A stretch of 64,000 bases of DNA from a virus. The notes beneath the pieces were generated by a model, which ran no database searches, had not been told where the DNA came from, and saw only the letters and a list, made by a program, of their open reading frames with translations. Within the stretch, counting starts at the first letter, position 1, and each line of letters opens with the position of its first letter. Positions 22,380 to 64,000 of this stretch are shown here, piece after piece. Position numbers and translations under genes: made by a program. The stretch lies in the IMG/VR virus record IMGVR_UViG_3300026484_000295, positions 108,405 through 172,404 of that record. One strand, written 5' to 3'.

Positions 22380-22781
22380 TTATTCAAAATAAATAAATAT
22401 ATAACCGGTTACGGGATCAATAAATTCTACTGTTATTTCGTTTTCGTCTATGATAGATATTGAACTATTAACCATACTATTTAAATTACTATCAAAAATA
22501 TTATAGTTGAAAAAAATAGTATTTTTATTATGGCGAATATTTATAGTATATACATCTTCAAATGTGAATTTAAAACTATGCTGTGAAATACTTTCATCAA
22601 TATATTCATTAAGACTATCTTGTAATGATAAATTAGTCAGGAATATTTGTATTTCATTATCTCTCCAAGATTTAAATACTTTTTCAGTAGTATTATACCA
22701 TACAAAACCATTTTCTTGAACTGATGGATCAAATTCTAATTGTTCTACTTTATTAATATTAAATGGATATTTCATTGTCAC
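22380..22781 (-). CDS. Small virion structural protein
   Basis: Contains G..WYNT and I.HN......IIDEN.I.VEF..P.TG modules, as in the neighbouring ORF. Confidence 0.55.
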   Translation of the reverse strand: MTMKYPFNINKVEQLEFDPSVQENGFVWYNTTEKVFKSWRDNEIQIFLTNLSLQDSLNEYIDESISQHSFKFTFEDVYTINIRHNKNTIFFNYNIFDSNLNSMVNSSISIIDENEITVEFIDPVTGYIFIYFE

Positions 22782-22784
22782 TCC

Positions 22785-23747
22785 TTAAATTATACGAACG
22801 TTTATAATAGCTTTATATCGTTTATCTTCTAAGAAATTAAATCGAATATATGAATCATTCTCTTCAACAGAAATAGGATTTATTAAACTATTATTATCAA
22901 TATCTATAATTTCAACAGAGAAAATATTTTTAAATTTTTTAGGTATTTGTAAATATGTTTTAGGTTTATCAATTTTAATATGCCAAGTAGAATAATAATC
23001 CCCAATAGACCCACCATGTTTCCATATTGTTAATAAATCATTATTTTTAACTCTATATACCAACCCATCGATCGTTAAAATATTATTAATTATAGAAAAT
23101 TCATTATTTTTTAATAATATACCATTTAAATCCACAGATAAACTATTAATATTTGTTCCTTCAAGAATACTTTCAATATCAAATTGTGTTTGTCCAGATA
23201 AAGTATAAATTTCATTTTTTTTATTTATTTTAGGATTACTTATTCTATCTTTTGGATGAAATACAAATATATATAAATCAATTATATTTGATTCTTTTAA
23301 AATTATTTTTTTTGAATCAAAAGGATCTATAATAAATTTAACTTCATTCATATTTTGATTATATATTATAATATTATCAATAGTAAAATTAAAAATAGAG
23401 TCATCTAAAATAAATTCTATTTCATTCAGATCGTATTTGATAAAAATTTGAACATCAAAAGTTTTATCATATTCTGTTTGAACCCAATTATCTCCAAACC
23501 ATCTATATACCATATGATCATTTTGATTAAACCATGTTTGACCAATTATAGGATTTATAGGTTGATATCTACCATAAAAATTTTGAATAACCTTAATATA
23601 ATTTTCATTTAATTCATCGGCTATATCAATTATATTATGACCAAACAAATGCAATGAAAATTTATCATAGTCGATTGTATCAGGGTCTATCCATGTTATA
23701 TCTTTACCATTTATATCCGAAATTAATTGTGTGTTATTATTAGCCAT
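22785..23747 (-). CDS. Baseplate/tail-fibre structural protein
   Basis: SL.LFG.N......LNENY....NF....P.NP..GQ.WF motif typical of jumbo-phage fibre/baseplate proteins, plus a GQT.F...V.LNG.L repeat. Confidence 0.6.
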   Translation of the reverse strand: MANNNTQLISDINGKDITWIDPDTIDYDKFSLHLFGHNIIDIADELNENYIKVIQNFYGRYQPINPIIGQTWFNQNDHMVYRWFGDNWVQTEYDKTFDVQIFIKYDLNEIEFILDDSIFNFTIDNIIIYNQNMNEVKFIIDPFDSKKIILKESNIIDLYIFVFHPKDRISNPKINKKNEIYTLSGQTQFDIESILEGTNINSLSVDLNGILLKNNEFSIINNILTIDGLVYRVKNNDLLTIWKHGGSIGDYYSTWHIKIDKPKTYLQIPKKFKNIFSVEIIDIDNNSLINPISVEENDSYIRFNFLEDKRYKAIINVRII

Positions 23748-23764
23748 ATACTACCTCTAACTTG

Positions 23765-25072
23765 CTATAAATATGAATATGCAATTTCAGAAATTATTTC
23801 ATTTGTTTCAATAATTTTGAACTTCCCACCCATATCTTTAAATTTATTTATCTTATTTATAGTTGATTCAATAGTTTCAGTAATATTAGATTTATTGATA
23901 GGCGAATATAACAAATATTGATTTGATATAGAAACGATTGGCTGCCCTTCAAAGTTTTCCATAATAAGAACTTTAGGTTTATTTGATTCCGGAACATCTA
24001 TATATGATATAATTTCTTTAAATAAATTATCAACAATTATCATATTCTCAATTTCTAAATTTTCAGATTTAAGATTACGTATAATTGTTTCAAGATATTT
24101 TTCTTCATTCTTAATTTCAGTTCCGAAAATCTTTGTTTGTTCTAATCTCTTTTTTGCTAAAGAACGATATTTCATTTCAATAGGAGATAATTCAATTGCA
24201 GGCAATTCTTCATTAGAAATAATCTTAGTGTCTAAATCATACGATACATTATCAGTATAATCAATAAGTATTGATTTTTGAGATTCAAGTTTAAATTTAA
24301 CAGCAACAACTTCAAGTTTTTTATCTATGCGGTCTTTGATAACCTCATACGTTACTTTAATATCAGATTTATCATTAACCTCTTGTACAGCTTTTTTTAA
24401 TATATCTCTATTAAAATTAGCCCATTTTTGTAAAGACGGTTTATTAATAATATCAACATTCAAAATAGCCTTTAATATATTTATCTCTATACGTTTTTCA
24501 TACGAACCAACATAATCTTTTAAAAGTTCATACAATAATTTTGAATATTTCGATTTTAATCCTACTTGGATTTGTAATGAGAATTTAGTATAATAATTTT
24601 TTACATTCAAAAACATTATCAATAATTCTGGCTCTATCCATACTTTAACTCTCTTGCTAGTAGTTTGTTTATCTTTCGACCATGCTATTTTTCTTAAAAA
24701 ATGAAATAAAATAGACTCTTGTGTTTTATTTTTATGTAAAACATTTGTTAAAACCTGTATTTTAGATATTTCATGTAAATTTTTTATTATCTCATTATAA
24801 TATCCATTTTTATATTTACCTAATACGTCAGATATTGATTGTAAGTTAATTTCAAAATGATTTAGAGATGCCCATTCATAAATCTCTTCTTCCGTTAATT
24901 CCTGTTGTAACATAATATCAGAAATAAAGAAAAACATAGTCCCAATTAAATCAACTTGAATAGGTGTTAAAACAGCAAATTCTTCTTTTATAAAATCTTT
25001 ATAATATAAAACTTGACATAACTCTGATGGTTTTCTTAATTCTAAGTTTTTTGTTAAATCTTTTTTACTCAT
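23765..25072 (-). CDS. repA: Plasmid-type replication initiator (Rep_3 / RepA-RepB winged-helix family)
   Basis: Rep_3 signatures YTKFSL......LKSKYS..LYELLKDY, F.RDILKKAV.E.N.KSDI.V.Y and V..VKF. It lies next to an iteron-containing intergenic region. Confidence 0.88.
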   Translation of the reverse strand: MSKKDLTKNLELRKPSELCQVLYYKDFIKEEFAVLTPIQVDLIGTMFFFISDIMLQQELTEEEIYEWASLNHFEINLQSISDVLGKYKNGYYNEIIKNLHEISKIQVLTNVLHKNKTQESILFHFLRKIAWSKDKQTTSKRVKVWIEPELLIMFLNVKNYYTKFSLQIQVGLKSKYSKLLYELLKDYVGSYEKRIEINILKAILNVDIINKPSLQKWANFNRDILKKAVQEVNDKSDIKVTYEVIKDRIDKKLEVVAVKFKLESQKSILIDYTDNVSYDLDTKIISNEELPAIELSPIEMKYRSLAKKRLEQTKIFGTEIKNEEKYLETIIRNLKSENLEIENMIIVDNLFKEIISYIDVPESNKPKVLIMENFEGQPIVSISNQYLLYSPINKSNITETIESTINKINKFKDMGGKFKIIETNEIISEIAYSYL

Positions 25073-25125
25073 AGTTTCAACCTTATTTTTTTGTATTTAT
25101 TAGATTTTACAATCACAATTAAAAT

Positions 25126-25646
25126 TACACAATCTAATCACAGTTTCTTCCCATTTTTAATATTTTGTAAGTATATTTATCCATATTTATATAGCATTTT
25201 ATCTTTTTTTTAAATTACACAATCTAATCACAGTTTTTTTCTTTTTATTCTTATCATGTATAATTATGGCAAAAAAAACTTAAAAAAAAAATCTTAGTTA
25301 AATTTAATATAAATTTTAGGCAATTTTCATAAGAAAAAAACTTAAAAAAAAAATCTTAGTTATGGCATTTTTTTTAATTAATGGTTTTCAATATAATATT
25401 TTCTTATATCTTATTTTTGTATATTGTCAATAAAATATATATTTAAATAATATTTAACTAAAAAATATTTTTTAAGGTATATAAAAAACTAAAAATAAAT
25501 ACGTAAGTTAAAATTTAAAAATTTAACTAAGAATTATTTTTTGAGTTAAAAAATGGGTTTTTTGCCGCATTTTAACACTATAAAATAAAGGTACTTTTTA
25601 TGGTTCACAATCTAATCACGAAAACTACACAATCTAATCACAGTTT
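25126..25646 (+). repeat. Iterons TACACAATCTAATCACAGTTT
   Basis: Full 21-mers at 25126, 25216 and 25626; 14-bp core at 25606. The last two cores are 22 bp apart. Confidence 0.85.
25272..25532. repeat. Second origin repeat family (A7CTTA10TCTTAGTTA direct pair plus inverted TTAGTTAAAT copies)
   Basis: 29-bp direct repeats at 25272-25300 and 25334-25362; inverted partial copies at 25452-25461 and 25520-25532. Confidence 0.7.
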
Positions 25647-25857
25647 TTTTCGAGGGTCACTGGGAAACACTATATTTTCTCGTGCAAAAATAGGACTGTA
25701 CAAAATACAAATAGAATAAAGGATAGATATATAGCCTTCGGCATGAAATAGATTATTTGATCCAGACTATCTTTATTTGATATGATTTATTTTCATATAA
25801 TACCTATTAAAATTAATTGTATAATAAAAAACAAATTATTAAATTTAAAGGTAAGTT

Positions 25858-26913
25858 ATGTCAAATAAAATTACAATGAGTACAGATTGGCATTTTGGTA
25901 AATCAAATGGGAGATTCGATAATATTATTTTAAATGGTATTATTGAACAATGTAATTATGCAAAGAATAATAATATCAAAGTTATGATTAATCTTGGCGA
26001 TACATTAGATGTAAAACAATCAATTACTACTAGTACTATGAATTATTTAGCTAAAGCATTTCAATTAATAAATGATACATTCGATAAAGTTTATGTATTA
26101 GTTGGTAATCATGATATGTCAAAGAAAACTTATAATAATGATGGGCATAATTTGCATATTTTTTCTGGTTATAATAATATTGAGGTTATCGATTCTCCAA
26201 AAATAATTTCGATATTTGATTCAGATTTTTATTTCATGCCTTATTTCCCAAATGATTATCTTAAAAATCATATTTTTGAGGAAGCTAGATTTATGTGTGC
26301 TCATATTGAAGTCCAAGGTTTTATGTTGAATCAATTTGTTAAAGCTGAAGATGGATTGAATATGCAAGCTATAACTAATATATATGATAATGTTTTTTTA
26401 GGTCATTTTCATAAGCGACAATCTAGAGGAAATGTATCTTATATTGGTAATATGTGTAGATTTTTTTATGGTGAAAATGATGAAGAACGTGGTTGGACTA
26501 TTCTAGATGTTGATACGAATAAGTATGAATTTATTGAATACCATCATCCGAAAATGTACAAATTTAAATTATCGACATTAATGAGTCTAGATGAAGATTT
26601 AAATAAAATATTTGAACCAGGCGACAATCTCAAACTAGTTATTGATAAACAATTAAAATATTCTGAATTAGAGGAATTTAAAACAAAACTAATTTTGGAT
26701 TATAAAATTAATGATTTAGTATTAGACGATCAATTTTATGCGTTTGATATTGATGAAATAGATGATGAAGATGAAACAGATGACAATGTTGCTGATTTAG
26801 ATCCTAGTTATATGGAATATCTATTAACAGAAATGACTAAGATTATTACAGATGATAACGCTGTAGAAGCTCTAGAATATCTTAGAGAAAAATCTAAAGA
26901 TTATCAGGAATAA
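25858..26913 (+). CDS. gp47: Recombination nuclease gp47 (Mre11/SbcD-like)
   Basis: Metallophosphoesterase motifs TDWHFG, LGD, VGNHD and GHFH. Confidence 0.93.
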   Translation: MSNKITMSTDWHFGKSNGRFDNIILNGIIEQCNYAKNNNIKVMINLGDTLDVKQSITTSTMNYLAKAFQLINDTFDKVYVLVGNHDMSKKTYNNDGHNLHIFSGYNNIEVIDSPKIISIFDSDFYFMPYFPNDYLKNHIFEEARFMCAHIEVQGFMLNQFVKAEDGLNMQAITNIYDNVFLGHFHKRQSRGNVSYIGNMCRFFYGENDEERGWTILDVDTNKYEFIEYHHPKMYKFKLSTLMSLDEDLNKIFEPGDNLKLVIDKQLKYSELEEFKTKLILDYKINDLVLDDQFYAFDIDEIDDEDETDDNVADLDPSYMEYLLTEMTKIITDDNAVEALEYLREKSKDYQE

Positions 26914-26985
26914 ATGTCTAATAAAATATAGTTTTAAAATCCTATTAATGTAAAATATGTAGAAAGATAAAAAAATGGAAGATAA

Positions 26986-28827
26986 ATGAAGATTAAATTT
27001 CGTAAAATTGAAATACAAAATTTTTATAGTTATGGTGATAAACAGGAAGTAGATTTAGATCAATTTAAAAGTACAGTTGTTTTGATAGATGGTATAGATA
27101 AAGATACAGAGGGGTCAAAAATTGGTTCTGGTAAATCATCATTCCTTGCAGCGATAACATATGCATTATTTGGTGAAACTGTTTCAAACGTAAAAGCTAA
27201 TGAGATTGTAAATTATATAAAAGGTAAAAATGCATTAGTGGTTTTGACATTTGAAATGAATAATACACTCTTTAAAATTGAAAGGGGTAGAAAACCAAAT
27301 ATATTGAATATCTATCAAGAAATTGATAAAGATGAAAAAGGTACTATTCAATGGGAAAATATATCACGAGCTGATATTAAAGATAATGATAAACTTATTG
27401 TCTCATTAATAAAAATCAATTTTGAAACATTTTTACAAACATCATTATTTTCTGTAGCTTCAGAACATAATAAACCTTTTTTAAATATGACGCCATCAAA
27501 TCAAAAAAAAGTTCTTGAAAATATCTTTAATTTTGATTTATTTAATAATATGATTAATGAGATAAAAGATGATGTTCGAGATAAACAGATTATTAGAGCT
27601 GAATTAGAATCTTCATTGAGAGAGGTTCAAATTTCAAATGAACAAATAGAATCACAAATAGAAAGACTGAAGGAATCTTCAGAGAAATTTGAAAAACGTA
27701 GAAATAAACGTATTAAAGAACTGGAAGAAAGTATAGTTTTTTATAATAATATTGATATTGAAGAAGAAAAAGATAAATTTGCATTTATAGATGAGTTAAA
27801 AGAACATAAAACTAATATTATGTCAACTATTTCAGAACTAAAAATTGAGTTGAAAGATATTCAAACTGAATTAGCACGAGTTGATAGAGAAATTGAATTG
27901 TTAGTCAACGATTATCAATCAGAAGAAGAAAATAATAAAAGTTTGAAAGGTAATATCTGTCCAACTTGTCATCAAGATTGGGAAGATCCAGATGCAATAA
28001 TAGCAAGTGATGATAAATTAAAAAAAATTGGGTCAGAAATAATTTCATTTGAGAAGAGCTTAAATGAATTTGAGGAAGTTGAACAAAAAATCTTAAAAAA
28101 AATTAAAGATAAAAAAAGTATTTTATTTGAAATTAAAGAAGCGATAGATGAAATCGAAACACAAATTGATAAAAAAGAATTGGATAATATTGATATTATA
28201 TTATCGAATATTAAGAAAGAATTAAAAAATGAAATGAATCAAGAAAACCATTATTTGATGGAAATAGAGGCAAATAAATCCTTACTTCGGGAAATAGATA
28301 CAGAAACATTAGATAAAGTTGATATATGGATACAAAATATCAAAGCATTTATCAAATTGTCTGAAGATCCTAAAACAAGAGGTAAATTTTTAAGAAAATT
28401 TATAAAACAGTCCAATGAAATTTTACGAGGGTTTAAAAAATTAATACCTGATTATAATATTCATATTCAATTTAACCCTGATTTCACCATTAGGGTTATG
28501 AAATTGGGGAAAGAAGTTAATCCTGCATCTTTATCGAATGGTGAAAAGAGGATTGGAAATATTATGATAATGATAGCATTAATGAAAGTATTTAAACTTA
28601 AAAATAATGTTGAATTTAACGCTATTTTTATGGATGAAGTTCTTGATAGTGGTATTAATGGTGCGTTATTAGAAAGTGTTTACACTTTTATAAAAAATGT
28701 AGCAAAAGAAGAACAAATGCGGGTTTATTTGATTTCTCATAGAGAAGAAATTAAAGAAAAAGTTAAAGAAATTATAATGGTTACAAAATCAAGAGGTATT
28801 TCAACTATTGAAATAAATCCTATATGA
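26986..28827 (+). CDS. gp46: Recombination ATPase gp46 (Rad50/SbcC-like)
   Basis: NF.SYG, GSGKSS, coiled coil with a CPTC zinc hook, LSNGE signature, FMDE.LD and ISH. Confidence 0.93.
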   Translation: MKIKFRKIEIQNFYSYGDKQEVDLDQFKSTVVLIDGIDKDTEGSKIGSGKSSFLAAITYALFGETVSNVKANEIVNYIKGKNALVVLTFEMNNTLFKIERGRKPNILNIYQEIDKDEKGTIQWENISRADIKDNDKLIVSLIKINFETFLQTSLFSVASEHNKPFLNMTPSNQKKVLENIFNFDLFNNMINEIKDDVRDKQIIRAELESSLREVQISNEQIESQIERLKESSEKFEKRRNKRIKELEESIVFYNNIDIEEEKDKFAFIDELKEHKTNIMSTISELKIELKDIQTELARVDREIELLVNDYQSEEENNKSLKGNICPTCHQDWEDPDAIIASDDKLKKIGSEIISFEKSLNEFEEVEQKILKKIKDKKSILFEIKEAIDEIETQIDKKELDNIDIILSNIKKELKNEMNQENHYLMEIEANKSLLREIDTETLDKVDIWIQNIKAFIKLSEDPKTRGKFLRKFIKQSNEILRGFKKLIPDYNIHIQFNPDFTIRVMKLGKEVNPASLSNGEKRIGNIMIMIALMKVFKLKNNVEFNAIFMDEVLDSGINGALLESVYTFIKNVAKEEQMRVYLISHREEIKEKVKEIIMVTKSRGISTIEINPI

Positions 28828-28861: not shown

Positions 28862-29512
28862 ATGAAATTTTCAGATTTAGATTTAGATATACCTTCTAAA
28901 TTGTCAAATGATATTAGGTCTAAATTTATAAGGGCGTCGGTTAAAAATAATGGAAAATATCAACCTCATCCAGCAGGTATATATTTGTATAAAAATATAC
29001 CTCAATTTAACAAAATTGCAATAGCCGATTATAAATTTATGGAGAATAATAATTATCAAAAAATTGATATTTTGAATAATACATTTTTAGATAATATTAC
29101 AAATGATGAAATGGATGAATTTATAGATTTAATTGAAATGGAAGAAATTGATTGGAATAAACTATATAAGTATAATGAACCATATCAACTTAGTAAATAT
29201 CCATCGATATTAAAAGAATTTCAGGTTTCATCGGTATTTGATATTGCTATGGTTTTATCTATAATAAGACCTGGATCAATTAAAAAATATGATACTTTAA
29301 AAAAAGCTATGAAAATAAAAAAAAAGATTAGTAAAGATATAAAGTATTATGATATTTTAAAAGACACATATGGTGTCCCCATTTTTAATGAACAATATAA
29401 AGAAATGGGTATTGATGATGGTGTGTATAGATATAAAAAACCGCATGCTATTGGCTATGCGTATGTATTATTGATTGATTTTTTAAAAAAAAGTCATAAA
29501 ATTAAGGAATAA
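28862..29512 (+). CDS. Minimal DNA polymerase III alpha (DnaE)-like fragment carrying the catalytic aspartates
   Basis: Motifs in DnaE order: SDLDLD (PDxDxD), HPAGI, KIDIL (KxDxL), VLSIIRPG, ILKDTYGV.IF.EQ and YKKPHA.GYA (FNKSHA.AYA). Confidence 0.85.
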   Translation: MKFSDLDLDIPSKLSNDIRSKFIRASVKNNGKYQPHPAGIYLYKNIPQFNKIAIADYKFMENNNYQKIDILNNTFLDNITNDEMDEFIDLIEMEEIDWNKLYKYNEPYQLSKYPSILKEFQVSSVFDIAMVLSIIRPGSIKKYDTLKKAMKIKKKISKDIKYYDILKDTYGVPIFNEQYKEMGIDDGVYRYKKPHAIGYAYVLLIDFLKKSHKIKE

Positions 29513-29614
29513 TTGTATAAAAAAAGATTTTTGAGGTCTTTTTTGATATAAATAAAAATGAATTATAAAAATAAGGTTGATATCTTATTCAAATTAAAAA
29601 AAAAGGAAGTTAAT

Positions 29615-29899
29615 ATGACAAAAGCAGATATGGTAGTACAACTACAAGAAATCATTGGTGAAGAAAAAGTTTCTAAAGCAGAATGTGAAAGAATCTGGAA
29701 TGGTTTAATTGAAATTATTGCAGAAGAAGTAAAAGATGGTGGAGAAGTAAAATTTGGATCGTTATTTAAAGTGTATAAAAAACATAAAAATGCTAGAAAA
29801 GTAAGAAATCCAAGAACTGGTGAAACTTTTATGAAAGAAGCTAGAGATGAACTAGGCTGTAAAGTTATGAGAGAAGGTAAATACCTTATTCAAGATTAG
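29615..29899 (+). CDS. HU/IHF-family DNA-binding protein
   Basis: MTKAD.V...VSK.E...G.V.F..F and ARK.RNP.TGE. The start at 29615 has an AAGGA RBS; the ORF track start at 29558 is probably too far upstream. Confidence 0.9.
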   Translation: MTKADMVVQLQEIIGEEKVSKAECERIWNGLIEIIAEEVKDGGEVKFGSLFKVYKKHKNARKVRNPRTGETFMKEARDELGCKVMREGKYLIQD

Positions 29900-45463: not shown

Positions 45464-47269
45464 ATGGGTATGACAAACGAACAAGAAGAATTTTCTAAAA
45501 CACGAGACACCCATATATTGGCACTAGCATCAGCAGGAGCAGGAAAAACCCATACATTAATTCATTTTATTCACGATAAAATTAAAAGTGGATTGCGTCC
45601 AAACCAGATAATTTCATTTTCATTTACTCGTAAAGCTGCAAATGAATTGAAAGATAGAGTTAATAGTCATTTTAAAGGTATGGATTTTGATTTTAAATAT
45701 ATATCGACTATACATTCTTTTTGTTGGAATGAAATTATTAAGCCCTTTTATAATGAAATTGGTTATACATCAATACCAACTATTGTACATGAGTTTCCAG
45801 ATGAATTTATGGAAAAAGAATATAAAGAACACGGTAAAAAACAAGATAGAGCTGGATTTAATCGCAAATTTATGGATATAGTTTCTAAAGATTTACAAGA
45901 AGAAGATTTTACGGCTCCAGAGACAGTACGCTTACTACAATATCTTGTTAGTCATAATCTAACTATGTTTGATTTTATGATTCATTTAGCTAATTTTGTA
46001 TTGAAAGAAGAGCCAGTTAAATTACAAAAACATATAGGTACAATAGGCTATGTTATAACTGATGAAGCGCAAGATTTAAATCCAGCACAGTATAAATTTA
46101 CTAAGTTACTGCAGTCAGTTTTTAGTAATGAAAAGAATAATGTAAATTTAGTAAAAGTTGGTGATTTTAAACAATCGATATATGGATTTAGAGGTAGTGA
46201 TCCTAGAATAATAAACACATTTGTTGATGAATTTGATCCTGTTGTTAAAATATTATCATATAATTTTAGGAGTGCTCCAGAAATTGTAGATTTAGCTAAT
46301 GAGATTGCCGAAACTATTGATTTAGGGAATGATGCACTTAATGAGTCGAAATATGCTCAACATGGGTCTAGTATATCTGAAGGAGAAGTTTATAACATAT
46401 ACGATGTTGAAGAATTTATTGATGAATTAAAATTGATTGAAAAACCATTAGAGCAAACTTGTATTTTGGCTAGAACTAATATGGTTATAAAATCATTAGC
46501 TAAGATTCTTGGAAAATTAGAAATACCGTATTATCTACATACTGAATTTGATATATTAAAGAGATCAGAAGTAAAATTTTTAATGAGTATGTTGAGTGTT
46601 GTGAGTCATGGATATAATAAAGCTATAGTTTTGGATATTATTAAAGCTGCAAAAGGTGGGATACCTATGAAAGTTGCTGCATCAATTAATAAATGTGATA
46701 ATATGCAAATGGTTGGAAGAATGTTTCAAGATATTAAAAAAATACCAGAAATTATAAAAATTTATAATGATTTAGAAAAAGGGTTGTTTAATGCGGCGAT
46801 ACCTAAAATCGCAAAACTTATGGAAACTTCAAAAAAATCATCTGAACAAATTCAACAATCATTGGAACGTTTTTATCGTGATTTGAATACTGTTAAAACA
46901 ACTGAAGGATTGGATTCTTGGATGGAAGCATTAGAAGAATTATTGTTTGAAGCTCAATTTTTAGAAGAAAAACAACAAGGTAAAGTACAGTTAATGACAG
47001 TTCATAAAAGTAAAGGGTTACAATGGGATAATGTTATCTTTATTTATGATTTCAGTTTATTAGAGCAGGTAGAAAATGATTTTTATGATTTAGAAGAAGA
47101 AAAGCGTGTAGTTTATACTGCTGTAACTCGACCAACAACTAATTTAGTTATCTGGGATTTAGAACAACAGATGATTAGTAGTTACTTTACAAAAGGGTCA
47201 TTGTTAAAGATGATAGAAAATGCTCTAAAAAAAGGTATTTTAGATATAGAGGATTTTTCAAAATATTAA
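45464..47269 (+). CDS. uvrD: UvrD/Rep/PcrA-family SF1 helicase
   Basis: A.AGAGKT, SFTRKAA.E, STIHSFC, DEAQD, VGD.KQSIYGFRG, NFRS, ILARTN, MTVHKSKGL and EE.R..YTAVTR. Confidence 0.95.
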   Translation: MGMTNEQEEFSKTRDTHILALASAGAGKTHTLIHFIHDKIKSGLRPNQIISFSFTRKAANELKDRVNSHFKGMDFDFKYISTIHSFCWNEIIKPFYNEIGYTSIPTIVHEFPDEFMEKEYKEHGKKQDRAGFNRKFMDIVSKDLQEEDFTAPETVRLLQYLVSHNLTMFDFMIHLANFVLKEEPVKLQKHIGTIGYVITDEAQDLNPAQYKFTKLLQSVFSNEKNNVNLVKVGDFKQSIYGFRGSDPRIINTFVDEFDPVVKILSYNFRSAPEIVDLANEIAETIDLGNDALNESKYAQHGSSISEGEVYNIYDVEEFIDELKLIEKPLEQTCILARTNMVIKSLAKILGKLEIPYYLHTEFDILKRSEVKFLMSMLSVVSHGYNKAIVLDIIKAAKGGIPMKVAASINKCDNMQMVGRMFQDIKKIPEIIKIYNDLEKGLFNAAIPKIAKLMETSKKSSEQIQQSLERFYRDLNTVKTTEGLDSWMEALEELLFEAQFLEEKQQGKVQLMTVHKSKGLQWDNVIFIYDFSLLEQVENDFYDLEEEKRVVYTAVTRPTTNLVIWDLEQQMISSYFTKGSLLKMIENALKKGILDIEDFSKY

Positions 47270-48255: not shown

Positions 48256-48762
48256 ATGGATGAATTAGCACCAGGTCTGATATATCTTTCTGATTTGAAT
48301 AAACTTGTATATTCAAACTCATATATTATAAATTCTGGAAGTAAATTGAGTTCAATTTCTAATGATTTAGGAACATATGCTGAGTATATTTCAGACGATG
48401 ATAGAGATTTATTATATGCAAAGTCTATTGGAGTTAAAGTTTTTAATGAGATAGTAAATGAATTTGATTATTCGCTTATAAATGATATTGATACTGATAG
48501 AGAAATTGATAAATTAAAAAAACAATTTTCTGAATTAAGTGATTTAATTGAAGATGAATATGATTATATCAAGTTATCAGCGCATAATATTCTTTTATTA
48601 AAAATGGCTTTTATACTTAAAAAACATTTAGATTCATTAAATACATCAGTTTATTTAATGCGTGGATCTGGAGTATCATCATTCATATTTTATTTAATAG
48701 GTTTAAATAAAGTCAACCCTATTAAATTTGGGTTAGATTATAAAAATTTTTGGAATAATTAA
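48256..48762 (+). CDS. DnaE-like N-terminal palm fragment (GS motif)
   Basis: C-terminal RGSGVSS.I.YLIG..KVNP.KFGL....F.N corresponds to DnaE GRGS.AGSL.AY.LGIT..DP..Y.L.FERFLN. Confidence 0.82.
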   Translation: MDELAPGLIYLSDLNKLVYSNSYIINSGSKLSSISNDLGTYAEYISDDDRDLLYAKSIGVKVFNEIVNEFDYSLINDIDTDREIDKLKKQFSELSDLIEDEYDYIKLSAHNILLLKMAFILKKHLDSLNTSVYLMRGSGVSSFIFYLIGLNKVNPIKFGLDYKNFWNN

Positions 48763-49379
48763 TGGAGAATAAAATGGAAGAAGAAGTATCAACAGAACAG
48801 GTTAAAAAAAAGGGTCGACCTAAATCAGAGCATTATGTTAAAGAAAGCGAATTAAGAGATGAAATTGCGATAGCCCAGCAAAATGCTATAAAGGCTATTG
48901 ATGAAATCACCAAAGAATGGGATAAAAAAATTGAAAATGCATCAACAGAACCTGAAAAAGAAGCATTGCGAATTGAAAAAGAAAAAGCTTTAAATAGAGC
49001 AAAGACCAAAACGTACTGTACCCCAAGGTTAGGTGAAATTGTAGTATTAACAGTTGATAGAGTCGGTACACAAACAAAATTTAGACATTATACTTATTTA
49101 GATGATATGAAAGCTGAAGCTATTTATCAATCCATTAGAGGTATTATAAAATTTAATTTAGATAAAACAAATGATGCTGGACAAAAAAGTTCATCATTTT
49201 CTTACCTTACACAAATCATTACAAATGCATTTAGGCAAATTTTAAAGAAAGAAAAGAAAAATAGAGAAATAAAAGATCAGGCAATTGAAATGGCATTAGA
49301 TCAACATAGTGATATTGATGTTGATTTTGAATCTATAAAAAGAAAGAAAGATCGTTTAGATATAGCACATAGAGATTAA
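48762..49379 (+). CDS. gp55: Late-transcription sigma factor, gp55-like
   Basis: HYV...EL, LG, F..YTY..DM...AI......KF...K......FSY.TQ...NAF.Q..KKEK. Confidence 0.9.
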   Translation: MENKMEEEVSTEQVKKKGRPKSEHYVKESELRDEIAIAQQNAIKAIDEITKEWDKKIENASTEPEKEALRIEKEKALNRAKTKTYCTPRLGEIVVLTVDRVGTQTKFRHYTYLDDMKAEAIYQSIRGIIKFNLDKTNDAGQKSSSFSYLTQIITNAFRQILKKEKKNREIKDQAIEMALDQHSDIDVDFESIKRKKDRLDIAHRD

Positions 49380-62946: not shown

Positions 62947-64000
62947 TGAATTTTTTAGAAGATATAGTGAAATTGACTTCAAAATATTTAAATGAAGCAG
63001 GATTAAATTATAATCATAATAAAAAGGGTGAAACCTCCTTTGAAAAAACTAATGGGTCTGAATTTCATATTCAGACTATTATTGAAAAATTCGCAGAAGC
63101 TAATAATATTACTAAACAAGAAGCACAACAATATTTTGATTTGAAAAAACAGGAAGCTATAGATAATATGAAAAAATCTATGAAAATCAATGGTACTATG
63201 ATTGATAATATTAGCGAGAGTATCGCATTTGAGATGTTGGAGTCTATTAAAATAGAAGATGTTAAATTTAATAAACGTACTTTTTTAGATTTATTTGAAA
63301 AAGTAAAATATGAAGTACCCGAATTTTATCCTCTTTCTAATTCATTTGAACCTCGACGAATTGAGCCAAAAATTGTTTTTGTGCCTGACCCATTATCTCC
63401 AGAATATGCTAGTATTGGTACGGCTGCATGTACTCCAACCGCAACATTGATATTTAATGTTCCTTTTTTAGAAAATCTCATGAAATTTTCAAATATAAAA
63501 GGTCTTAAAGCTAATCCGAATTTTTTACATGGACAGAAATATATATCTCAAGGTGGAGATATTCCAGATGCATATTTATATTGTGAGTTTGTATTGTTAC
63601 ATGAAATTATGCATTATGCTAATGGAGATTTCTTTTTTGAAAAAGCTTTTAATTTAAATGGAAAATTAGTTAATTATGTTGGTGATTTTATAACTAATTA
63701 TAACTTGGTTAAAAGTGGTTATGCTCAATTACCTATGGGTCTATTTAATGATGAAATTAATTATGATCGTTATAATTCATATCAAGAAATGTACAATGTT
63801 GTTGAAGACGAAATGAAACGTTTATCAGATGAAGAAAAAGAAAAAATGATGGATCAATTAGATCAGTTAGGTGATGAAATGCCAGATGAGGGTGAAGGTG
63901 CAGACCCCGAGAATAAAAATGGACAACCTCAAGATGGACAACCTCAAGATGGACAACCTCAAGATGGACAGCCTCAAGATGGACAACCTCAAGATGGACA
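62946..64000 (+). CDS. DUF2201-type putative metallopeptidase (usually with a C-terminal vWA domain); runs off the window
   Basis: Not in the ORF track. Manual translation: MNFLEDIVKLTSKYLNEA...IGTAACTPTATLIFNVPFL...EFVLLHEIMH...NYVGDFITN, then a low-complexity linker. Start overlaps the ATPase stop (TAATG). Confidence 0.8.
   Translation, partial: MNFLEDIVKLTSKYLNEAGLNYNHNKKGETSFEKTNGSEFHIQTIIEKFAEANNITKQEAQQYFDLKKQEAIDNMKKSMKINGTMIDNISESIAFEMLESIKIEDVKFNKRTFLDLFEKVKYEVPEFYPLSNSFEPRRIEPKIVFVPDPLSPEYASIGTAACTPTATLIFNVPFLENLMKFSNIKGLKANPNFLHGQKYISQGGDIPDAYLYCEFVLLHEIMHYANGDFFFEKAFNLNGKLVNYVGDFITNYNLVKSGYAQLPMGLFNDEINYDRYNSYQEMYNVVEDEMKRLSDEEKEKMMDQLDQLGDEMPDEGEGADPENKNGQPQDGQPQDGQPQDGQPQDGQPQDG
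63919..64000 (+). repeat. 15-bp tandem repeat encoding (DGQPQ)n
   Basis: ATGGACAACCTCAAG, at least 5.5 copies, continuing past the window edge. Confidence 0.92.

Follow-up and report, generated by a model that had tools for sequence, protein, structure and literature searches.

The rep locus and its genomic setting

The window analysed here is a stretch of 64,000 nt from the viral contig IMGVR_UViG_3300026484_000295, which is 172,404 bp long and ends on both sides within tandem repeats. It carries an ORF for a predicted replication initiator of the Rep_3 family (Rep), separated from the divergent gene sbcD by an intergenic region of 785 bp (25073-25857) in which the repeats and the AT-rich DNA described below are found (Table 1). 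As the sequence-only reading had stated, T4-type genes lie on both sides of rep. One flank encodes the sheath, baseplate hub, portal, tube, prohead protease, and major head proteins, and the opposite flank encodes SbcD/SbcC (gp47/46-like), gp13- and gp15-like proteins, and a gp55-type late sigma factor (48762-49379; PHROGs 12791 and 234). The T4 core virion genes were recognized through PHROGs 138, 213, 207, 23, and 4542 and the Pfam family T4_baseplate. The ORF located downstream of rep (22785-23747) has no Pfam match, and the leads that Atlas offers for it, to tail-like viral proteins, are weak.

The major head protein matched 2,567 phage records, including many Synechococcus, Klebsiella, and Salmonella phages. 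The top matches, and by this protein the nearest cultured relatives, are E. coli jumbo phages of ~350 kb (32-34% identity). For Rep, no cultured relative was found when three Rep queries were compared by tblastn with 50,697 phage records, and no DNA match was obtained either. The source is an uncultured clade of T4-like jumbo phages with genomes of ~290 kb or more, and the module is carried by the whole clade. The records compared (G000-G004) are incomplete, linear, and 50-87% complete, so that genes absent from them could sit in unassembled parts. In G001, the 40 largest ORFs beyond the region homologous to the window include those for a ligase, ribonucleotide reductase, topoisomerase II, thymidylate synthase, and homing endonucleases, the last being common in the genome. 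With respect to gp43 and gp41, which the sequence-only reading had suggested looking for, DNA_pol_B matches do exist in G000-G002 but stay below the cut-off, and the search of G000, G001, and G002 for a DnaB-type helicase (DnaB_C) found nothing.

Table 1. Features of the rep-sbcD locus (positions in the window).
Feature	Position	Strand	Evidence or remarks
rep, predicted Rep_3 initiator, 435 aa	23765..25072	-	Pfam, profile, AF2/Foldseek
rep -10-like element TGTAAAAT	25104..25111	-	31 nt ahead of ATG
Half-iteron ATTGTGAT, candidate autorepression operator	25112..25119	-	abuts rep -10 element
Iteron 1, rep-proximal	25128..25141		exact copy; identical in G001; aligned with co-varying iterons of 7 relatives
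Iteron 2	25218..25231		exact copy; kept in G001; aligned in 7 relatives
Origin centre (putative)	25277..25547		four 23-bp palindromic units AACTnA-N11-TnAGTT
Iterons 3 and 4, distal pair	25606..25641		exact copies; kept in G001; aligned in 7 relatives
Conserved block beside distal iterons, less AT-rich	25642..25760		~97% identical to G001 (whole intergenic region, 85%)
TGTATAAT, extended -10-like element ahead of sbcD	25818..25825	+	read from sequence; putative promoter
sbcD (25858-26913) and sbcC (26986-28827), gp47/gp46-like recombination nuclease	25858..28827	+	divergent from rep
HU-like DNA-binding protein	29558..29899	+	Pfam Bac_DNA_binding, E 1.2e-15; conserved in relatives

Rep is a predicted winged-helix initiator with an additional domain

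The assignment of this ORF to the Rep_3 initiators, already made in the sequence-only reading, holds in the Pfam search, in which both winged-helix domains exceed the gathering scores. WH1 corresponds to Rep3_N (PF01051; E 2.7e-11, residues 63-185, 44.4 bits against a cut-off of 22.4), and WH2 to Rep3_C (PF21205; E 8.1e-9, residues 200-261, 36 bits against a cut-off of 21.1). The protein also matches PHROG 4402, annotated as 'replication initiation protein', and, by profile comparison, the π protein of R6K (2nra, E 2.7e-8) and RepE. The AF2 model (pLDDT 81) shows the fold of RepE and π: Foldseek aligned it with 7sdp_C, 1rep_C, and 8aan_A, at E values from 2e-9 to 6e-8 and target-based TM scores of 0.75-0.81 (RepE54 bound to an iteron: E 2e-9, TM 0.78), and with π (2nra_C, E 3e-5).

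The two winged helices occupy approximately residues 1-265, and they are followed by a clade-specific C-terminal domain (approximately residues 290-435). This domain of ~145 aa is conserved and models at pLDDT 87. It yielded no convincing match in the PDB, the best hit of a wide search (Z 5.7) covering only a helical hairpin, and its Atlas feature scores, of 0.79 or lower, serve only as leads. Some Rep homologues occur as fusions with a T5orf172 domain (PF10544).

Iterons and AT-rich centre of the intergenic region

The 14-mer iteron CACAATCTAATCAC occurs in exactly four copies, all on the + strand, with the third and the fourth starting 22 bp apart (25606 and 25628) and three of the four extending to ~23 nt. 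No other copy with up to two mismatches exists in the window, where none of 100 shuffles reached four, or in the whole 172,404-bp contig. The four repeats in the 785-bp region reported from the sequence alone, two of them 22 bp apart, have thus proved to be exact and unique in the contig. The AT-rich core of that report is equally real: AT content reaches its peak, 88-94%, at 25373-25520, a segment presumed to be the DNA unwinding element that would melt upon initiation. The 23-bp palindromic units of the putative origin centre start at 25277, 25339, 25487, and 25525; only three more are present in the remaining 172 kb, and palindromes of this type recur in all seven relatives. The segment 25482-25582 is 100% identical in G001.

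The conserved block beside the distal iterons contains small hairpins whose stems vary among relatives (seen by eye only, in A3). RNAalifold found no consensus structure for it in either orientation, and the search of positions 24900-26000 against Rfam returned no family.

Many, but not all, Rep_3 members have a DnaA box in their origin. The DnaA-box-like 9-mer that had been proposed here (TTATCCATA, 25177-25185) has been discarded, as it carries one mismatch to the consensus, is at chance level (54 such one-mismatch sites in the contig), and is not kept in G001, whose genome is 91% identical.

Promoters and divergent neighbouring genes

The -10-like element of rep belongs to a motif, TGTAAAAT, that precedes 17 genes of the contig at a distance of 28-44 nt and is common to rep, sbcC, a UvrD-type helicase, and thymidylate kinase. 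Structural genes (head, tube, portal, and sheath) are instead preceded by TATAAATA. At the position aligned to the rep element, five relatives read TGTATAAT, an extended -10. A further divergent TGTATAAT, at 25257-25264, was rejected because it is not conserved in G001. The half-iteron next to the rep element lies in a region whose columns AAT.GTG.AtTGTA.AAT are invariant in seven relatives, and its position makes it a candidate operator through which Rep may repress its own gene.

Winged-helix Rep proteins are known to repress their own promoters, and in the intergenic region iterons lie close to the promoter at either end. This arrangement would also suit a Rep acting mainly as a transcription regulator. 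The repeats would then be operators for the two divergent promoters, those of rep and sbcD, and replication would start elsewhere by R-loops or recombination, as in T4, which itself needs no initiator protein. However, the extremely AT-rich centre of ~380 bp between the repeat clusters and the tandem arrays of distant relatives, with spacings of 22 or 31-32 bp, fit an origin better, and to our knowledge all characterised Rep_3 members are initiators, which makes this regulatory role distinctly improbable.

The divergent genes sbcD and sbcC were identified by PHROG 100 (E 4e-57) and PHROG 77 (E 3.5e-84), respectively, and they hold the same position in L002, L004, and L006.

Conservation and inheritance of the module

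In G001, the iterons are perfectly kept, with the intergenic region as a whole being 85% identical. Seven relatives, with Reps 50-96% identical, share one common origin plan, in which a distal iteron pair and two iterons proximal to rep enclose an AT-rich centre containing the 23-bp palindromes, and the -10 element is accompanied by a half-site. Their iterons follow a scheme in which an A-tract precedes GTG-N8-TTGTG, and the N8 spacer differs with each Rep; in L011 and L004 the distal pair is likewise 22 bp apart. More distant Reps (30-39% identity), encoded on other IMG/VR contigs, have three to four tandem iterons of their own just upstream of rep, at a spacing of 22 or 31-32 bp.

Since this is a metagenome contig, both ends of which lie in tandem repeats, a plasmid fragment could have been joined to a phage contig during assembly. 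The same gene order is found, however, in independent ENA, NCBI, and JGI assemblies (contigs of 264-496 kb), and the junctions on both sides of rep recur in at least five independent assemblies (ENA, NCBI, JGI, IMG/VR). The chimeric join that the sequence-only reading had named as a possible refutation of its proposal is effectively refuted by these assemblies, and its probability is virtually nil.

A second possibility is a selfish replicon or satellite-like module that was inserted in the phage genome and is unused by the phage. Rep_3 is typically a plasmid gene, and both the T5orf172 fusions and the abundance of homing endonuclease genes would be in keeping with such an origin. Against this, the module occupies an identical position in relatives whose Reps are only 51-59% identical, Rep diverges alongside SbcD and SbcC (its identity tracks theirs across relatives), the GC content of rep equals that of its neighbours, and the gene uses the phage's own promoter motif. 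An unused insertion is therefore very improbable, and the comparison indicates that the module is vertically inherited, being neither a chimera nor a recent insert.

Search for plasmid maintenance and lysogeny functions

The replicons of F, P1, pSC101, and R6K are of the type that combines Rep_3 with iterons, and on this basis the sequence-only reading had proposed a phage-plasmid, that is, a low-copy episome kept by Rep and the iterons that switches to a T4-like lytic programme. The proposal has several points in its favour. Virion genes are present together with a plasmid-type initiator, and the iteron and half-site at the rep promoter, as well as the two separated iteron clusters, resemble those of copy-controlled plasmids. 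In low-copy plasmids, autorepression and the splitting of iterons into clusters keep the copy number down; what a lytic burst would gain from them is not obvious, and they count against a vegetative origin. Moreover, most reports of persistent, non-temperate infection concern jumbo phages, Asteriusvirus among them (10.1101/2024.12.31.630880), and the nearest cultured relatives of this phage are E. coli jumbo phages of ~350 kb.

The genes expected of such a lifestyle were nevertheless not found. In the five records of 50-87% completeness (G000-G004), there was no match for ParA (two models, AAA_31 and CbiA), ParB (ParB_N), or tubulin/TubZ, no tyrosine integrase, serine recombinase, or resolvase, and no S24 repressor (Peptidase_S24, LexA-type), and no repressor or immunity gene was found among 70 ORFs scanned with PHROGs. 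The positive control for the partition search was G005, a complete viral record of 115 kb with a distant Rep_3, in which the same searches detected ParA (E 1e-35) and ParB (E 1e-16); for the ParM profile search, the control was without match. No relative of Rep was found in 185,579 species-representative bacterial genomes, and PLSDB contains only weak, partial matches to it (27-37% identity). In addition, the rep promoter is of the class used by DNA-metabolism genes, and the gene content is as in large virulent phages. With maintenance and lysogeny genes not found, no relative in bacterial genomes, and a promoter shared with DNA-metabolism genes, the proposed episomal lifestyle has become unlikely.

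A probable vegetative origin of the Rep_3 type

An initiator with iterons also serves strictly vegetative phage origins, as exemplified by lambda O with ori-lambda, and the module alone therefore implies no plasmid state. Direct support exists for the family membership and fold of Rep, the uniqueness and conservation of the iterons, their co-variation with Rep, and the vertical inheritance of the module. Rep_3 and its iterons are probably the main vegetative replication origin of this clade of T4-like jumbo phages, in which recombination genes are also present.

According to this model, host RNA polymerase would transcribe rep after infection from the extended -10-type promoter, and Rep monomers would then bind the four iterons, each winged-helix domain contacting one GTG in successive major grooves (GTG-N8-GTG), as the predicted fold suggests by comparison with RepE and π. 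The AT-rich centre, framed by A-tracts and the two iteron clusters, would open, and the clade-specific C-terminal domain might, more speculatively, recruit a phage or host helicase/primase, with forks departing bidirectionally. The lack of a DnaB_C match in G000, G001, and G002 counts against the model. Rep bound at the proximal iteron and the half-site could repress its own promoter and limit origin firing. By analogy with T4 biology, the recombination genes, including the adjoining gp46/47-like SbcCD, could later take over bulk replication.

In G000 and G001, both gene orientation and cumulative GC skew switch at the rep locus, which coincides with the skew minimum. Nevertheless, GC skew exactly mirrors the coding strand, and in the more distant records G002 and G003 the Rep loci are away from the minimum, so that the skew has been set aside as independent evidence for the origin.

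A dual use can also be envisaged, with the module driving the first lytic rounds and, in addition, supporting a copy-limited, partition-less episome of ~300 kb in a carrier or pseudolysogenic state. This is quite unlikely, but it would provide a T4-like phage with a plasmid-like means of persistence.

Comparison with known replication systems

With the theta plasmids of the Rep_3 type (RepE of mini-F, π of R6K, RepA of pSC101 and pPS10), this system shares the WH1-WH2 architecture and fold, direct repeats beside rep at multiples of ~11 bp, an adjoining AT-rich region, and a rep promoter that carries a whole or half repeat. In contrast to them, the phage Rep has the extra conserved domain of ~145 aa unmatched among solved structures, its origin is devoid of a conserved DnaA box, and the genome that carries both is that of a jumbo phage (at least ~290 kb) in which T4-type virion genes, but no partition genes, were found. 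The best plasmid matches, at 27-37% identity, cover part of the protein.

In lambda-type initiator origins, the logic is the same, with early expression and a later switch of replication mode. Lambda O with ori-lambda, P4 α, SPP1 G38P, and PLE RepA (described, with its iterons, in PMC7145576) all combine a phage-encoded initiator with about four iterons and an AT-rich region. Rep has no homology to lambda O, since Pfam gives only Rep_3 here and not the lambda O family, and its iterons are intergenic, whereas those of lambda are inside the O gene.

The likeness to T4 lies in the T4-type virion genes, the gp46/47-like nuclease, topoisomerase II, the gp55-like late sigma factor, and the TATAAATA late promoters. 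T4 origins (oriF, oriG, oriA, and oriE) rely on promoter-derived R-loops without an initiator protein, whereas a dedicated initiator and iterons are located here at a strand-switch point. P1 (RepA, incC/incA iterons, ParAB) also has an iteron-type initiator in a phage genome, but neither ParAB nor immunity/repressor genes were found here, and the phage was not seen in the bacterial genome assemblies searched. The phage-plasmid type is exemplified instead by G005, with its distant Rep_3, ParA, and ParB.

No description of a Rep_3 and iteron replicon within a T4-like jumbo phage was found in the literature. Outside T4 itself, next to nothing is known of the replication origins of T4-like phages, and the same holds for huge phages, of which ~30% have genomes with a GC skew suggesting a single bidirectional origin (PMC7162821). 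One clade now gains a concrete candidate origin, comprising initiator, binding sites, and unwinding region, with a readable recognition code (GTG-N8-GTG) whose spacer varies among relatives. The case also shows that a viral contig should not be called a phage-plasmid on the strength of a 'plasmid' replication gene alone, a caution relevant to automated classification. The C-terminal domain of Rep, with its lack of a structural match, is a candidate for the adaptor linking a plasmid-type initiator to a phage replisome, and the HU-like protein encoded near sbcC could, speculatively, act as an accessory factor at the origin.

A Rep_3 Initiator with Adjoining Iterons

The sequence-only reading assigned rep to the Rep_3 family, and this has been upheld by Pfam, as both Rep3_N (E 2.7e-11) and Rep3_C (E 8.1e-9) score above the Pfam cut-offs. 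The protein also matches PHROG 4402, "replication initiation protein", and a profile built from 31 homologues hits R6K pi (E 2.7e-8) as well as RepE. In addition, an AlphaFold model (pLDDT 81) superposes on iteron-bound RepE54 (Foldseek E 2e-9; TM 0.78-0.81 by target). By sequence, fold and adjoining iterons, the module belongs to the Rep_3 initiator family. The C-terminal 145 aa of Rep, conserved clade-wide and confidently modelled (pLDDT 87), matched no solved fold.

The four repeats described in the 785-bp intergenic region are exact copies of CACAATCTAATCAC; neither the window nor the whole contig holds further copies at up to two mismatches, and four copies were reached by no shuffle. The AT-rich core is likewise present, the centre of the region being 88-94% AT. 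The DnaA-box-like 9-mer, on the other hand, has been discarded, because it is one of 54 one-mismatch sites in the contig and G001, a collinear relative, does not keep it. Four 23-bp palindromes lie in the origin of the window versus three across the rest of the 172 kb. Compared with G001, identity across the whole intergenic region is 85%, while all four iterons with their flanks, and a 100-nt stretch of the centre, are perfectly kept.

Features of the window around the rep locus. Origin elements come from an alignment of seven relatives and are listed in the sbcD to rep direction
Feature	Position (strand)	Description	Basis
rep	23765-25072 (-)	435 aa	
ORFs downstream of rep	22380-23747 (-)	320 and 133 aa	
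Iterons CACAATCTAATCAC	25128, 25218, 25606, 25628	four exact copies	
Block beside distal iterons	25642-25760	small hairpins	
Origin element 1		moderately conserved block with small hairpins	alignment
Origin element 2		A7 tract, then distal iteron pair	alignment
Origin element 3		~380-bp AT-rich centre, several 23-bp palindromes AACTnA-N11-TnAGTT	alignment
Origin element 4		two proximal iterons, 90-100 bp apart, A-tract before each	alignment
Origin element 5		half-iteron fused to rep -10 element	alignment
Promoter-like motif examples (two classes together)	25104-25111, 26949, 28834, 35902, 45425, 48222		
Left of rep	(-)	three unnamed ORFs, then tail sheath, baseplate hub, gp2-like end protector	Pfam/PHROG
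Farther left	(-)	2,221-aa tape-measure-like protein, portal, tail tube, prohead protease, major head protein	
Right of origin	(+)	SbcD and SbcC (gp47/46-like), Pol III alpha finger fragment, HU-like protein	
Farther right	(+)	gp13- and gp15-like genes, fibres, UvrD-type helicase, gp55-like late sigma factor	
Pol III alpha finger ORF	28862-29512	E 5e-8	
Pol III alpha NTPase/palm ORF	48256-48762	E 2e-5	
Helicase	45464-47269	UvrD-helicase E 4e-40, UvrD_C E 1e-31	Pfam
gp55-like sigma factor	48762-49379		
Right-end tandem repeat	63850-64000 (+)	15-nt unit	

The block next to the distal iterons shows better conservation than the remaining intergenic region. Its hairpin stems vary by relative (for example GGGG/CCCC, GGGT/ACCC and GACA/TGTC) round a TTTnTnGyGAC loop, and neither Rfam nor RNAalifold returned anything for it; it may act as a single-strand initiation signal or give rise to a small RNA.

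Conservation and Inheritance of the Module

The iteron form GTG-N8-TTGTG is kept in every relative, with variable spacers (ATTAGA, ATTCGT, TAAGTT, AAAGTA) that are each followed by an invariant TT. The paired GTGs, one helical turn apart, would let each winged-helix domain take its own major groove, as RepE and pi do. More distant Reps on other viral contigs (30-39% identity) hold their own three to four tandem repeats directly upstream of rep, spaced 22 or 31-32 bp. One 306-kb record, G002 (IMGVR_UViG_3300035665_000001), encodes two Rep paralogues (loci L014 and L018) that share 50% identity and have separate tandem iteron sets, TCATTTTCTATTGG in four copies for one and TTTATGTTTTCCGA in three for the other. 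Either one phage has two independent origins, or the record mis-joins two related phages; the second reading is suggested by one of the two loci matching a locus in another record, G004.

The homologues found in a protein search fall into 67 clusters, and many of these lie on contigs of 120-496 kb. Contigs from ENA (264 kb), NCBI (496 kb) and JGI (299 kb) have a common gene order, in which Rep and three ORFs precede the sheath on one side, and a 0.9-1.1-kb intergenic region precedes SbcD, SbcC, the Pol III finger fragment, HU and gp13 on the other. Among these phages, Rep identity (51-59%, closest pair 84%) tracks that of SbcD/SbcC (59-67%, closest pair 84-86%), which indicates vertical inheritance of rep within the clade.

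The same order in the three contigs, with Rep, SbcD and SbcC identities in step, excludes a chimeric join; the shared synteny and parallel divergence also exclude a recent insertion of the module.

Expression Class of rep

The motif TGTAAAAT sits 28-44 nt upstream of 17 genes across the contig, including rep, sbcC, the Pol III finger ORF, thymidylate kinase and the UvrD-type helicase; the copy in front of rep reads TGTATAAT in relatives, an extended -10. Structural genes instead have the T4-type late motif TATAAATA in front of them, and a gp55-like sigma factor is encoded in the window. Therefore, rep groups with DNA metabolism and not with the late structural genes. The TGTAAAAT class would be early or middle. 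The promoter-like class TGTAAAAT(A) precedes mostly DNA-metabolism genes.

The larger ORF after rep begins 17 nt past the stop codon of rep and lacks a late-promoter motif. Both downstream ORFs, for which database searches gave only weak tail-like leads, are kept in all close relatives (as 323 and 131 aa) and may be co-transcribed with rep.

Replication Origin or Phage-Plasmid

The rep and iteron module is probably the replication origin of the phage. It would function in the manner of lambda O with ori-lambda or of plasmid oriS/oriV systems. Gene orientation and GC skew both switch at the rep locus in the source record and G001, but the skew is no independent evidence of an origin: here it equals coding-strand bias, and in G002 and G003 (another viral record) the Rep loci lie off the skew minimum. 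Bidirectional replication from one origin is already thought to be frequent among huge phages (PMC7162821). Literature searches turned up no account of a Rep_3/iteron origin for T4-like or jumbo phages.

The proposal that the element persists as a low-copy episome appears improbable, since neither a partition system nor occurrence in isolates, the features that define phage-plasmids, was found for the module in the records and genomes searched. Six-frame Pfam searches of the source record and four other viral records (G000-G004, 50-87% complete) gave no ParA (AAA_31, CbiA), ParB, S24 repressor, tubulin/TubZ, tyrosine integrase or serine recombinase. Run on the distant record G005 as a positive control, these searches recovered adjoining ParA (E 1e-35) and ParB (E 1e-16); a ParB-like gene also came up in a 54-kb record bounded by direct terminal repeats. 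No lysogeny-linked gene appears among 40 further large ORFs of G001, which include ligase, ribonucleotide reductase, topoisomerase II, thymidylate synthase and homing endonucleases. Relatives of Rep were absent from 185,579 species-representative genomes, and PLSDB returned only partial matches (27-37% identity). Apart from the replicon, nothing points to a plasmid state, absence from incomplete records not being proof.

The viral record G005 (IMGVR_UViG_2645727839_000001), complete at 115 kb, has ParA/ParB at 72.8-74.3 kb and a distant Rep_3 (locus L019, 27% identity); as a phage-plasmid candidate it is far stronger than the window.

Genome Setting

The source record, a virus entry of IMG/VR, is linear (172,404 bp, GC 27%, 61% complete by CheckV), and the window is its final 64 kb. 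It is a fragment, because both ends stop inside short tandem repeats (on the left a 15-nt unit at 1-150 of the record), which probably explain the assembly break. G001 (289,880 bp, 87% complete) is collinear with it at ~91% identity. The label "T4-like jumbo phage" is a fair one given the flanking T4-type virion genes and the major head protein, which matched 2,567 phage records in all and is 32-34% identical to its counterparts in ~350-kb E. coli jumbo phages.

Two small ORFs, 19 kb apart, each match a different portion of bacterial DNA polymerase III alpha, and the finger ORF is kept beside sbcC in relatives. No replicative (DnaB-type) helicase was found in G000-G002. The helicase encoded in the window is labelled "DNA helicase / Dda-like" by PHROGs and is of the UvrD/Rep/PcrA-type SF1 by Pfam.
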